From the sequence record OZ335958.1: a DNA stretch of 64,000 nucleotides, one strand, 5' to 3'. This stretch comes from a phage. A program made the position numbers and the translations under genes. Below are positions 26,796 to 31,106 of this stretch, piece by piece. Numbering within the stretch: position 1 is the stretch's first letter; each line of letters opens with the position of its first letter. A model generated the notes under the pieces. It was not told the origin of the DNA and did not search any database. It saw nothing but the letters and a program-made list of their open reading frames with translations.

Positions 26796-27008
26796 TCATT
26801 TTTGTCCTGTATTTACTTTATGCCGATGCACGGCCTTAACTTTATCAAGGTATTTTTCAAAATTTCGCAATCTAGTATAGTCTGCCGGAGATTGGTTGAG
26901 TGATACTTCTCGACGCAAAGCTGAAATGATATTTCCAACTTCCCTACGAATTTCATCTAATTGAAGAACAGTAAGATTGCGAAGTTGCTTTTCAGTTAAT
27001 TGTAGCAT
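26796..27008 (-). CDS. Hypothetical small protein (T4 rI.1 position)
   Basis: 70 aa ORF. Confidence 0.45.
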
Positions 27009-27050
27009 ATATACCCCTTTAGTTAGATAAACCTATTTATAACTTTTGCA

Positions 27051-27632
27051 CTAACCGAGCTTTTTAGTTAATTCATTCCAATGTTTTCTACACAAAGAAA
27101 CATAAATTTCATCACCAATACAGATTTGATTACCTTCTTTAACCGGTGTTCCATCTTCCATTAATCGAGCTGTCATAATAGCCTTTTTACCACAATGACA
27201 AACTGCCTTTAGTTCAATAAGTTTATCTGCAATCGCCAAAAGTTCTTTAGAACCTTCAAATAATTTTCCAGCGAAATCAGTCCTTAGTCCATAAGCCATA
27301 ACAGGAACACTATATGTATCAACAATTCGGCTTAATTGATGCACCTGTTTAGTTTTTAAAAACTGGGCTTCATCTACAAATACACAATGAATATCTTTTT
27401 GTGCTTCAGCCCATTTATAGAACTCAAAAATATCCATATCATCCGTAATAATATTCGCTTCCTGCTTAATTCCAATGCGAGAAACGACTTCACAGACAGA
27501 ATCACGAGTATCAATAGCAGGCTTAAGAACTAATACACCCATTCCGCGTTCTTTATAATTATGTGCAGCAGTCAAAAGAGAAGCAGATTTTCCAGCATTC
27601 ATTGCTGCGTAAGTAAAAATTAAACTCGCCAT
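27051..27632 (-). CDS. tk: Thymidine kinase
   Basis: 193 aa, P-loop AAMNAGKSASLL and C-terminal CHCGKKA...C zinc ribbon typical of TK. Confidence 0.9.
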   Translation of the reverse strand: MASLIFTYAAMNAGKSASLLTAAHNYKERGMGVLVLKPAIDTRDSVCEVVSRIGIKQEANIITDDMDIFEFYKWAEAQKDIHCVFVDEAQFLKTKQVHQLSRIVDTYSVPVMAYGLRTDFAGKLFEGSKELLAIADKLIELKAVCHCGKKAIMTARLMEDGTPVKEGNQICIGDEIYVSLCRKHWNELTKKLG

Positions 27633-27641
27633 ATCACCTTC

Positions 27642-27827
27642 TTAAAGCGTATTCACATAAGCTATTAATTCGTTTTCTTTCTTATCAAACCGATCAGCAA
27701 ATTCTTCTTGCTGATCGGGAGATAGCGGGCCGTATTCATCATAAAAGGTGTTTGCTTCTGTATGCTCATCTAGAAGTTCATGGATAAGCTCAAACAATTT
27801 ATCTTTTTGTTCTTTACTCAGACTCAT
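27642..27827 (-). CDS. Hypothetical acidic small protein
   Basis: 61 aa ORF. Confidence 0.45.
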   Translation of the reverse strand: MSLSKEQKDKLFELIHELLDEHTEANTFYDEYGPLSPDQQEEFADRFDKKENELIAYVNTL

Positions 27828-27997
27828 ATATTAATTTCCAGGAGTTTTAAAATAATTCGCTTTTGCTTAAATATTTCCATAGTTAAATGACCAGTATCTT
27901 TTTGACCGATTCCAATGGCAAAACCTTTATTGACAGCGAGTTCAATTAAATTATCAAGCTCACGTAACACTTCATATTGTAACTCAAAACTATTCAT
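27824..27997 (-). CDS. Hypothetical small protein (57 aa), translationally coupled
   Basis: Hand translation MNSFELQYEVLRELDNLIELAVNKGF...; ATGA overlaps at both ends. Confidence 0.35.
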   Translation of the reverse strand: MNSFELQYEVLRELDNLIELAVNKGFAIGIGQKDTGHLTMEIFKQKRIILKLLEINI

Positions 27998-28200
27998 TTC
28001 GGTTTACCTTCTTTAACGAAATCGGGATAAGGATAAAATCCTGAATAAAATCCTTCACCTTTATGATTGATGCATCCTTTATTAGAACAATAGCACCAAT
28101 AATCGAAATCACAAGCCATTTCATCATTACATAAAGCAAAAACAACTGGCCATTCACACTTTTCGCAGTGGGCATTTTTAAGAATACTTGTTTGGCTCAT
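27994..28200 (-). CDS. Cys-rich small protein (gene B), probable zinc binder
   Basis: MSQTSILKNAHCEKCEWPVVFALCNDEMACDFDYWCYCSNKGCINHKGEG; start set at the Met that forms an ATGA overlap with upstream gene A1. Confidence 0.5.
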   Translation of the reverse strand: MSQTSILKNAHCEKCEWPVVFALCNDEMACDFDYWCYCSNKGCINHKGEGFYSGFYPYPDFVKEGKPK

Positions 28201-28382
28201 AACCATGTAACCTTTAAACAATATTCTTCTACGTGTTGTTTACGACCTTTCTTATCAATAAAGGTATATTCAACGAATGTTCCAATATAGTCTTTATCTA
28301 CACCATGTGGACTATTAATTGGGCATTTAGTACGGCAAATGCGTTCCCATTGACGAATAATTTCCACTTTGTTTTTAGTCAT
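28197..28382 (-). CDS. Small protein gene A copy 1 (61 aa, N-terminus created by the duplication junction)
   Basis: MTKNKVEIIRQWERICRTKCPINSPHGVDKDYIGTFVEYTFIDKKGRKQHVEEYCLKVTWL. Confidence 0.45.
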   Translation of the reverse strand: MTKNKVEIIRQWERICRTKCPINSPHGVDKDYIGTFVEYTFIDKKGRKQHVEEYCLKVTWL

Positions 28383-28455
28383 TACATAAAGCAAAAACAA
28401 CTGGCCATTCACACTTTTCGCAGTGGGCATTTTTAAGAATACTTGTTTGGCTCAT
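28375..28455 (-). pseudogene. Truncated 5' copy of gene B (26 codons) generated by the tandem duplication
   Basis: MSQTSILKNAHCEKCEWPVVFALCND then stop at the repeat junction. Confidence 0.5.
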
Positions 28456-28664
28456 AACCATGTAACCTTTAAACAATATTCTTCTACGTGTTGTTTACGA
28501 CCTTTCTTATCAATAAAGGTATATTCAACGAATGTTCCAATATAGTCTTTATCTACACCATGTGGACTATTAATTGGGCATTTAGTACGGCAAATGCGTT
28601 CCCATTGACGAATAATTTCCACTTTGTTTTTAGGATCAAACGGATGCGGGTAATGTACTTTCAT
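28452..28664 (-). CDS. Small protein gene A copy 2 (70 aa, likely ancestral N-terminus)
   Basis: MKVHYPHPFDPKNKVEIIRQWERICRTKCPINSPHGV...; C-terminal 57 residues identical to copy 1. Confidence 0.5.
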   Translation of the reverse strand: MKVHYPHPFDPKNKVEIIRQWERICRTKCPINSPHGVDKDYIGTFVEYTFIDKKGRKQHVEEYCLKVTWL

Positions 28665-29115
28665 AATCCATCACTATTAAATCAATATCAGGAGTAAACA
28701 TGTCGATTAATTTAGAAACCTTATCCCAATCGCCGCCAGCAATACCGCAACCTATACGTGGAATGTAAATTACTGGTTTAAACAAAAGGGTTTCTGCCTG
28801 TAGATTTAATTCTATCATGCAGTTTACTAAAGCACCATAATCAAGATTAGGACCCGGTTCGTATTGTGTATACAGGTTATAGCATATACCAAATCCCGTA
28901 GGGCTATGTTTAAAAACAATAGACATATCGCCTAATTTATCACGAGAACCGTACTCGGTAGTGGTTTTATCTATTTCTAAAATTTTGGGATAGGCTCTTG
29001 CTAATTGACCCGCTACGCCAGAGCCCATTGTGTGGAAGCAATTGCACCCGTGCGCAATAATATTACCTTGAAGAAATAGGGCGACAATATCGCCCTTGAT
29101 ATATTTTACAATCAT
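28636..29115 (-). CDS. Macro-domain protein (ADP-ribose binding/processing fold)
   Basis: 159 aa; KGDIVALFLQGNIIAHGCNCFHTMGSGVAGQLA matches the macro-domain G-D-I ... N-x-x-N ... G-x-G-V-A signature. Confidence 0.55.
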   Translation of the reverse strand: MIVKYIKGDIVALFLQGNIIAHGCNCFHTMGSGVAGQLARAYPKILEIDKTTTEYGSRDKLGDMSIVFKHSPTGFGICYNLYTQYEPGPNLDYGALVNCMIELNLQAETLLFKPVIYIPRIGCGIAGGDWDKVSKLIDMFTPDIDLIVMDYESTLPASV

Positions 29116-29459
29116 CTAGTACTCAATCCTCGATTATAAGAATCTACTAAACGGTCAACCATTGAATGACAAGCGGCTTTATCTTTCTCCTCCGCAACTG
29201 AACATTCTAAAGTATTCCACTTTTTAGCATATCGTTTTAACAATGTATCATTTTTGTATCTGCTTGATTTATCTCTTTCTCCGTCTTTATATGCATATAT
29301 TAATTTCTGCGCAAATTCAGCTTGGCATGCTTTATTTTTCCCACAATAATCCGCGGCAGTACGGTTTACATACTCTCTAATTTCAGTATATGATGTATCT
29401 GCTAACGCAGAAGCAGAAAATGAAATTAATCCTATACATAAAACCAAAATTTTAGTCAT
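29112..29459 (-). CDS. Secreted/periplasmic small protein (signal peptide)
   Basis: 115 aa, MTKILVLCIGLISFSASALA signal peptide, 4 Cys. Confidence 0.5.
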   Translation of the reverse strand: MTKILVLCIGLISFSASALADTSYTEIREYVNRTAADYCGKNKACQAEFAQKLIYAYKDGERDKSSRYKNDTLLKRYAKKWNTLECSVAEEKDKAACHSMVDRLVDSYNRGLSTR

Positions 29460-30525: not shown

Positions 30526-30804
30526 TTATTCTTTAAATCTAATCAATTTATTCATAGACTTTGAAACTTCTGCACGGACCTCATGTAGGTTTTTAAGCTG
30601 TTCAAGACGCTGCTCATAGTAAGCAATTTCATCTTCTTCGAGACAGTCCTGTGAATCTTCTTTAAGATAACGTGCATAGTCCTGGAAAGCTTTACGGACT
30701 ACTTCTTGGAAGTCATCAAGACTTTGAATTTTCTTAGGAGCAACAGATACACGACGAGGGGCAGTATAATACTCATAACCAAACCCTGCGCTTAATTGAG
30801 CCAT
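30526..30804 (-). CDS. Hypothetical protein (T4 vs.3 position; start at internal Met)
   Basis: ORF-track 30526-30846 trimmed to Met 15 giving a TAATG junction. Confidence 0.45.
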
Positions 30805-31106
30805 TAATATTTTTCCTCTGGTTGGAACACAGCACGACAAGCCCACATACTAGCTTCTTTGAGTTTCGTTTTAGCAATAGTTAACTGATCGAGGCTTTCA
30901 GCATAATTCTTTGCGAATTCGTAGTCTTCACAATTATCTAGTGCTTCCCAGAATTCATCATATAAAGCGTCAAAGATAAGTCCTAAACGAACTTCAGCGT
31001 CTTTGATAGCATTCACTTTATCGATTTTCTCTTCAGTGTGCGGCTTATAACCTTTAATATCTTCAATCATATTTGACTTCCTCGCCCGTTCCCAAATCAT
31101 ATTCAA
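30804..31106 (-). CDS. Hypothetical helical protein (T4 vs.4 position)
   Basis: 100 aa ORF. Confidence 0.5.

Follow-up and report, generated by a model that had tools for sequence, protein, structure and literature searches.

The ATG-started open reading frame at 28636..29115 on the minus strand of the phage record OZ335958.1 is tk.4 of a Tequatrovirus (T4-like phage), located between tk.3 and vs. Its 159-residue product is probably (we put the probability at roughly 0.6) a DNA de-ADP-ribosylation enzyme directed against DarTG2, which would act by a lysine-independent mechanism, probably through H22, N25 and Q84. The window, that is, the whole stretch of DNA analysed here, is 64,000 nucleotides long. 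The macro nature of tk.4 has long been annotated (2006), and its counter-defence role in T4 has been known since 2025. What is added here, by comparison of sequences, is that the anti-DarTG2 Tk.4 family lacks the catalytic lysine of DarG and TARG1 and groups with Adpp/Poa1p-type phosphatases. The remaining value of tk.4 is mechanistic: the nearest characterized relative of this DarTG2-protective family without the DarG lysine is a phosphatase that belongs to another counter-defence pathway.

Macro fold and active site of Tk.4

A preliminary description made from the sequence letters had proposed a macrodomain protein at this position, and profile and structure comparisons bore this out. The Pfam Macro profile PF01661 matched with 32 bits (curated gathering cut-off, 22; E = 1.3e-7) over profile positions 2–117 of 118, and PHROG 335, labelled 'phosphatase', matched with E = 5.7e-71. 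The AlphaFold2 model, with 69 homologs in the input, had a mean pLDDT of 93.9 and a pTM of 0.89, and a Foldseek search of the PDB returned TARG1, BT1257, Poa1p and DarG at a probability of 1.00. The model shows the three-layer alpha/beta fold of macro proteins, in which the GxG loop follows the second strand; a fold unlike this one had been named as an outcome that would count against the proposal. In structure and profile, Tk.4 was nearer to TARG1, DarG, Poa1p and SCO6735 than to MacroD-type proteins, PARG or macroH2A, which places it in the ALC1/TARG1-like class. We know of no function for BT1257. GenBank, like PHROG, annotates the tk.4 family as 'phosphatase', the T4 RefSeq entry for Tk.4 (NP_049723) reads 'phosphatase; contains A1pp phosphatase motif', and tk.4 orthologs matching the A1pp domain had been recorded in several T4-like genomes by 2006 (PMC1524935).

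Among defence-related profiles, DarG was the best and sole match in PADLOC (5.3e-7, positions 3–144 of 329) and the top match in NCBIfam (NF048014; 1.5e-6, 27.7 bits against a cut-off of 250, positions 2–143 of 338). The identity of Tk.4 as a DarG antitoxin was nevertheless rejected. DarG (M. tuberculosis 5M3I; T. aquaticus 5M31/5M3E) carries the catalytic lysine, Lys80, in an FPTK motif, where Tk.4 has LYTQ, and DarG has a C-terminal DarT-binding domain and a neighbouring darT gene, neither of which belongs to Tk.4; darT was absent from the tk.4 neighbours vs, vs.1, regB, tk.3 and a zinc-binding ORF. Membership in TARG1 was rejected as well: TARG1/OARD1 uses the pair K84 and D125, whereas the aligned residues of Tk.4 are Q84 and A126.

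The coordinates of the gene and of its motifs are collected in the following table.

Table 1. Features of the tk.4 gene and its product in the window
Feature	Position	Strand	Basis and remarks
tk.4 CDS	28636..29115	-	ORF, Pfam Macro, tk.3/vs slot, identity to T4 and OE5505; 159 aa, single macrodomain
ATGA overlap of vs stop codon and tk.4 start codon	29112..29115	-	sequence reading
Hairpin AGGGCGAUAUUGUCGCCCU, GC-rich, 8-bp, then U-rich run	29078..29096	-	terminator-like match; 19 nt inside tk.4 CDS
G8-D9-I10, N-terminal G-D-[IL] motif	29086..29094	-	conservation, 124 relatives
H22-G-C-N25-C26, putative catalytic-loop motif	29038..29052	-	alignments and conservation
G31-S-G33-V-A35-G36, GxG phosphate-binding loop 1	29008..29025	-	conservation; GxG role from literature
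N80-L-Y82-T83-Q84	28864..28878	-	Q84 aligned at catalytic Lys position of DarG (K80)/TARG1 (K84)
P119-R-I-G-C-G-I-A126-G-G-D-W130, diphosphate-binding loop 2	28726..28761	-	alignments and conservation

Residue conservation was counted across 124 family relatives, including T4 Tk.4, Adpp and BT1257. The GDI signature named in the preliminary description was found as G8-D9-I10, with G8 in 121 of the 124 relatives and position 9 being D in 92 and N in 30; in macrodomains, the Asp of the G-D-[IL] motif is the residue that contacts adenine. The G-S-G-V-A-G signature was likewise found (G31-S32-G33-V34-A35-G36), G33 being present in all relatives and A35 in 123. The N-x-x-N-like stretch held in part: its second Asn is N25, but the place of the first is taken by an invariant His (H22-G-C-N25). 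Both H22 and N25 occur in 122 relatives, the remaining two being gaps. N25 aligns with N23 of PhiKZ AdfM and with the DarG Asn, and H22 aligns with H23 of Poa1p, for which the PDB holds mutant structures (H23A, S30A and F152A, according to the entry titles). In loop 2, P119, G122, G124 and W130 are invariant, and A126 aligns with TARG1 D125 and Poa1p F152. The conserved set of the family comprises H22, N25, C26, G33, A35, D49, N80, Y82, Q84, P119, G122, G124 and W130, and all invariant residues are common to the window and T4 alleles.

Q84 is present in 124 of 124 relatives, and none has Lys at this position. Three independent alignments (the family profile against TARG1, hhalign against M. 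tuberculosis DarG, and MAFFT with eight proteins) put Q84 ('LYTQY') opposite TARG1 K84 ('ITKK') and DarG K80 ('FPTKK'); the register is gap-free from the preceding beta-strand to Y93, and the codon was checked in the window DNA. By these alignments, Q84 sits at the position of DarG K80. A phmmer search of the PDB with Adpp was discarded as a guide to the register, because Adpp has an insertion near the TARG1 Lys that makes the gap there ambiguous. As the Lys position is occupied by an invariant Gln throughout the family, the chemistry of Tk.4, judged from the alignments, cannot be the lysine mechanism of DarG and TARG1. Mutation of K80 inactivates DarG, and SCO6735, from the same clade, is active without the catalytic pair by a mechanism that is unexplained (PMC8120803); its substrate is glutamate-linked protein ADP-ribose. 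In the mapping of catalytic residues proposed in the preliminary description, macro-type motifs are present, but the site is not the classical N-x-x-N/lysine one, having H-x-C-N-C and the invariant Gln instead.

Relatives of Tk.4

In tblastn searches, homologs with 37–40% identity were found in Vibrio phages, adjoining genes annotated 'ribose-phosphate pyrophosphokinase'; in GRLPWR and Gary, the homolog gene has a Prs-like gene on one side and, on the other, a gene resembling that of nicotinamide phosphoribosyltransferase. The homolog of Vibrio phage Gary, KNV71_gp137, is Adpp, to which the window Tk.4 is 39% identical (E = 2e-26). The purified Adpp protein turns ADPR-1''-phosphate into ADPR, and in combination with Adps and Namat (NARP1) it defeats aRES, a defence with a RES domain (bioRxiv 10.64898/2026.01.28.702374). 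Tk.4 and Adpp have in common the Adpp/Poa1p-like signature H-x-C-N-C ... Q ... IGCG-x-AGGDW, and they differ in a 7-residue insertion after the Gln, which Adpp has and Tk.4 lacks. They also differ in setting: the Adpp gene lies in the NARP1 operon between Adps and Namat, whereas tk.4 of the window lies between vs and tk.3. When Gary Adps and Namat were used as tblastn queries, nothing below E = 0.37 was found in the window, and nothing below E = 0.47 in the complete OE5505 genome, which carries a 99.4% identical tk.4 allele. Adps matches in E. coli phages were in genomes of about 78–149 kb, none of them of T4 size, among the 40 of 1,514 records listed. As a side observation, E. coli and Salmonella phages of Felixounavirus size (about 85–90 kb) carry a Tk.4 homolog (about 34–36% identity, 'phosphatase') and a Prs-like Adps homolog, and they may hold further operons of NARP1 with a phosphatase.

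Tk.4 is 18–23% identical to DarG macrodomains and PhiKZ AdfM, with values of 20–22% for the window protein. The alignment splits cleanly into two groups, one formed by Tk.4, Adpp and BT1257 (AH-x-CNC, N-x-Y-x-Q and IGCG-x-AGG-x-W) and the other by DarG and PhiKZ AdfM (VN-x-VGVMG, FPTK and PPLG-x-xNGGL). PhiKZ AdfM was tried as a close relative of Tk.4 and rejected, its match being a mere 23-residue local one with E = 0.001. PhiKZ gp104, also named AdfM, strips ADP-ribose from DarT2-modified DNA in vitro, and its activity is lowered by N23A (PMC13309987). T4 Tk.4 and PhiKZ gp104 are 18–21% identical and belong to different macrodomain subfamilies. The name 'AdfM' has therefore been given to two proteins that, because the alignment separates them, are not orthologs: PhiKZ gp104 is DarG-like, has the FPTK lysine and is known from biochemistry, whereas T4 Tk.4 is Adpp/Poa1p-like, has Gln and is known from genetics.

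Proposed counter-defence function and its alternatives

In T4, HIDEN-SEQ transposon sequencing singled out tk.4 as the one gene with specific depletion on a DarTG2 host; a clean knockout becomes DarTG2-sensitive, while the gene is dispensable on plain K-12, the phenotype being confined to DarTG2, and tk.4 was renamed adfM, for anti-DarT factor Macrodomain (bioRxiv 10.1101/2025.11.20.689424). This agrees with the earlier, independent result that T2 and T4 without adfA and adfN are still DarTG2-resistant, from which a further factor was predicted (PMC11825919). In the T4 study, removal of ADP-ribose from DNA was inferred solely from the structural likeness of Tk.4 and M. tuberculosis DarG, and catalytic residues were not discussed (bioRxiv 10.1101/2025.11.20.689424). 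Because the Tk.4 family, as aligned here, is without the catalytic lysine and groups with Adpp/Poa1p-type phosphatases, the published 'like DarG' mechanism is not yet secure.

Full-length similarity and the tk.3/vs position make the window protein an ortholog of T4 Tk.4 (57% identity over 155 aa, E = 3e-70). The two share their slot, length class (159 and 155 aa), fold class and invariant residues, and their first 47 residues are about 85% identical. The window allele is nonetheless distinct: 43% of positions differ, the protein is four residues longer C-terminally, the overlap of tk.4 with tk.3 is 29 nt against 4 nt in T4, and loop 2 reads IGCGIAGGDW against IGAGIGKGNW. With such divergence, the T4 phenotype does not automatically carry over to the window allele, for which we infer the anti-DarTG2 role from the T4 ortholog. 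Enzymatic de-ADP-ribosylation of DNA is, in the same way, the presumed source of the T4 effect.

Under the DarTG2 reading, Tk.4 would be translated from a vs-tk.4-tk.3 message of the minus strand, belonging to a gene cluster that is pre-replicative in T4. Upon infection, host DarT2 would ADP-ribosylate thymidines in single-stranded phage DNA and thereby block replication. With its G-D-I, GxG and IGCGIAGG loops, Tk.4 would bind the ADP-ribose moiety, and it would then hydrolyse the group attached to C1'' of the distal ribose. The ADP-ribose would be stripped and the template restored, with Tk.4 serving as an orphan, phage-borne stand-in for the DarG antitoxin.

This role draws support from the macro fold, the orthology and synteny with T4 and the conserved ADP-ribose-binding motifs, and the removal of DarT2-attached ADP-ribose by a phage macrodomain has a precedent in PhiKZ gp104. 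The nearby Acb2 gene, 1.7 kb away, and the hypervariability of tk.4 described below, which is typical of arms-race genes, also count for a counter-defence role. Against it stand the invariant Gln in place of Lys and the Ala in place of TARG1 D125, as well as the 37–39% identity and the whole active-site signature in common with the phosphatase Adpp. The net charge of Tk.4 is -5, which does not obviously suit a DNA-binding protein, but as a proxy for DNA binding this measure is too crude to weigh. The preliminary description had suggested that ADP-ribose-based host chemistry is counteracted, which fits the DarTG2 genetics of T4 tk.4; its mention of ADP-ribosylation by the phage itself fared less well, as the protein marks set by Alt, ModA and ModB are not a likely substrate. 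The likely substrate is ADP-ribosyl-thymidine inflicted on the DNA by the host, or ADPR-1''-phosphate.

The latter substrate would be the main one if Tk.4 were chiefly an Adpp/Poa1p-type phosphatase converting ADPR-1''-phosphate to ADPR, with RES-domain NADase defences (aRES) or the by-product of RNA 2'-phosphotransferase repair as the source of the phosphate compound. We regard this as unlikely, though second in rank to the DarTG2 role. The similarity to Adpp, whose activity on this compound was seen with the purified enzyme, speaks for such a phosphatase, as do the common signature (H-x-C-N-C, N-x-Y-x-Q and IGCG-x-AGGDW), the place of Poa1p among the leading structural matches with its H23 opposite the invariant H22, and the 'phosphatase' label in GenBank and PHROG. 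However, Adpp works solely with Adps and Namat, both of which are absent from the window and the OE5505 genome; tk.4 lies outside any NARP1 operon; and the sole reported phenotype of the T4 ortholog concerns DarTG2. As the NARP1 partners are absent, a stand-alone phosphatase of this kind would have no obvious pay-off here, whereas the link of the T4 ortholog with DarTG2 is a direct one.

The phosphatase role and the DarTG2 role are compatible, and one active site might do both. Since in both ADP-ribosyl-thymidine and ADPR-1''-phosphate the leaving group is attached to C1'' of the distal ribose, one pocket could plausibly serve the two substrates. As a tentative extension, Tk.4-type macrodomains may be lysine-independent ADP-ribose 1''-hydrolases that use one site for ADP-ribosyl-thymidine DNA and for ADPR-1''-phosphate. 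If so, a single early protein of 18 kDa would counter both DarTG2 and RES-type NADases, two NAD-based defences that are unrelated to each other. T4 Tk.4 and PhiKZ gp104 would, moreover, have arrived at one counter-defence by different chemistry, starting from separate macrodomain subfamilies. The substrate range of Tk.4 would show how thymidine de-ADP-ribosylation proceeds without a lysine, whether a single enzyme serves T-even phages against more than one NAD-based defence, and why two 57%-identical alleles exist in otherwise near-identical genomes.

It is quite improbable that Tk.4 is a non-catalytic binder that sequesters ADP-ribose-derived molecules, shields ADP-ribosylated DNA or inhibits DarT2. 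The missing Lys/Asp pair of the closest mechanistically understood relatives would suit such a protein, and the sponge-type anti-defence protein Acb2 is encoded nearby, but the invariance of the pocket-lining polar residues H22, N25, D49, N80 and Q84 across the 124 relatives points to catalysis. Adpp, with the same signature, is an enzyme, SCO6735 is active although it also lacks the pair, and the domain with which DarG binds DarT is missing from Tk.4.

Alt, ModA and ModB modify arginine. That Tk.4 reverses or tunes ADP-ribosylation or RNAylation by these phage enzymes is the least probable reading and a very remote one: OE5505 does encode two Alt-like and two Mod-like ADP-ribosyltransferases, and macrodomains are the commonest erasers of ADP-ribose, but arginine ADP-ribosylation is typically reversed by DraG/ARH-type enzymes (PMC8120803), TARG1-clade macrodomains have acidic residues, nucleic acids or the 1''-phosphate as their targets, the transferase genes are unlinked to tk.4, and T4 does not need tk.4 on plain K-12.

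For the preferred reading, that of an orphan enzyme against DarTG2, the setting of distant homologs is also of interest. On the Pelagimonas chromosome, a distant Tk.4 homolog stands alone, with no darT, kptA or RES genes near it, and for two other distant homologs, which lie on phage-like metagenomic contigs, no partner gene is conserved. These settings fit an orphan enzyme; they gave no lead to its function.

The tk.4 locus and its alleles

The order tk.3-tk.4-vs is common to the window, vB_SsoM_113, T4 and OE5505, and in annotated relatives tk, rI, regB and vs.3-vs.8 genes lie around tk.4. The 1.5 kb surrounding tk.4 is 99.8% identical to that of phages LF73P3, ZCEC15 and vB_SsoM_113, and the whole window aligns with Escherichia phage vB_EcoM_OE5505 (31160-95817) at about 95–97%, its gp117 being 99.4% identical to the window Tk.4. 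Proteins at least 99% identical to the window Tk.4 occur in 64 phage records, and about 310 records have one of 90% identity or more; homologs with E of 1e-3 or less are present in 2,860 phage records.

Every gene examined from rI.1 through the vs.4 ortholog is on the minus strand. The ATGA overlap between vs and tk.4 points to translational coupling, and a GAGGA lies about 12–16 nt upstream of the tk.4 ATG. A scan of 26.5–32 kb for sigma-70-like promoters, with a model of the sigma-70 type only, gave 19 sites against 21 expected by chance. The hairpin inside tk.4 might play a part in attenuation, termination or RNA stability; the T4 tk.4 hairpin has the identical nucleotide sequence and the same fold, at about -14 kcal/mol.

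Three further observations concern the neighbourhood. The vs.4 ortholog (30804..31070, minus strand), 1.7 kb from tk.4, contains the Acb2/Tad1 hairpin domain PF24729 (3.7e-20) of the anti-CBASS/anti-Thoeris sponge family. At 27824-28200 (minus strand), two ORFs of the RB32 type stand in place of T4 tk.1: ORF110c, which has 57 aa and no Pfam match, and ORF111c, which has 68 aa and the phage zinc-binding domain PF23895. An exact tandem duplication of 255 bp (28119-28373 and 28374-28628) begins 8 nt past the tk.4 stop codon and takes in the 3' portion of tk.3 (DUF7202) together with the 5' portion of the zinc-binding ORF of RB32ORF111c type (PF23895), yielding a truncated copy of the zinc-binding ORF (28375..28476) and a chimeric DUF7202 ORF (28197..28430, Pfam 4.4e-28). 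The duplication junction was contiguous in none of the top matches listed (455 matching phage records in all), and OE5505 maps across the duplication with a 255-bp overlap. The duplication is either a very recent event or an assembly artefact.

Within this well-conserved region, tk.4 is a sharply bounded hypervariable cassette. The proteins encoded around it (26796-29459) are 99% (vs), 91% (tk.3), 98% (tk) and 100% (rI.1) identical to those of T4, whereas DNA identity to T4 drops from about 58/60 to about 27–34/60 inside tk.4 and recovers directly after it. It is this drop and recovery that define the cassette, of which at least two alleles occur in near-identical backbones. Such hypervariability is expected for an arms-race gene. 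Another stretch of the region, tk.2 (27642-27827), is likewise just 54% identical to its T4 counterpart.
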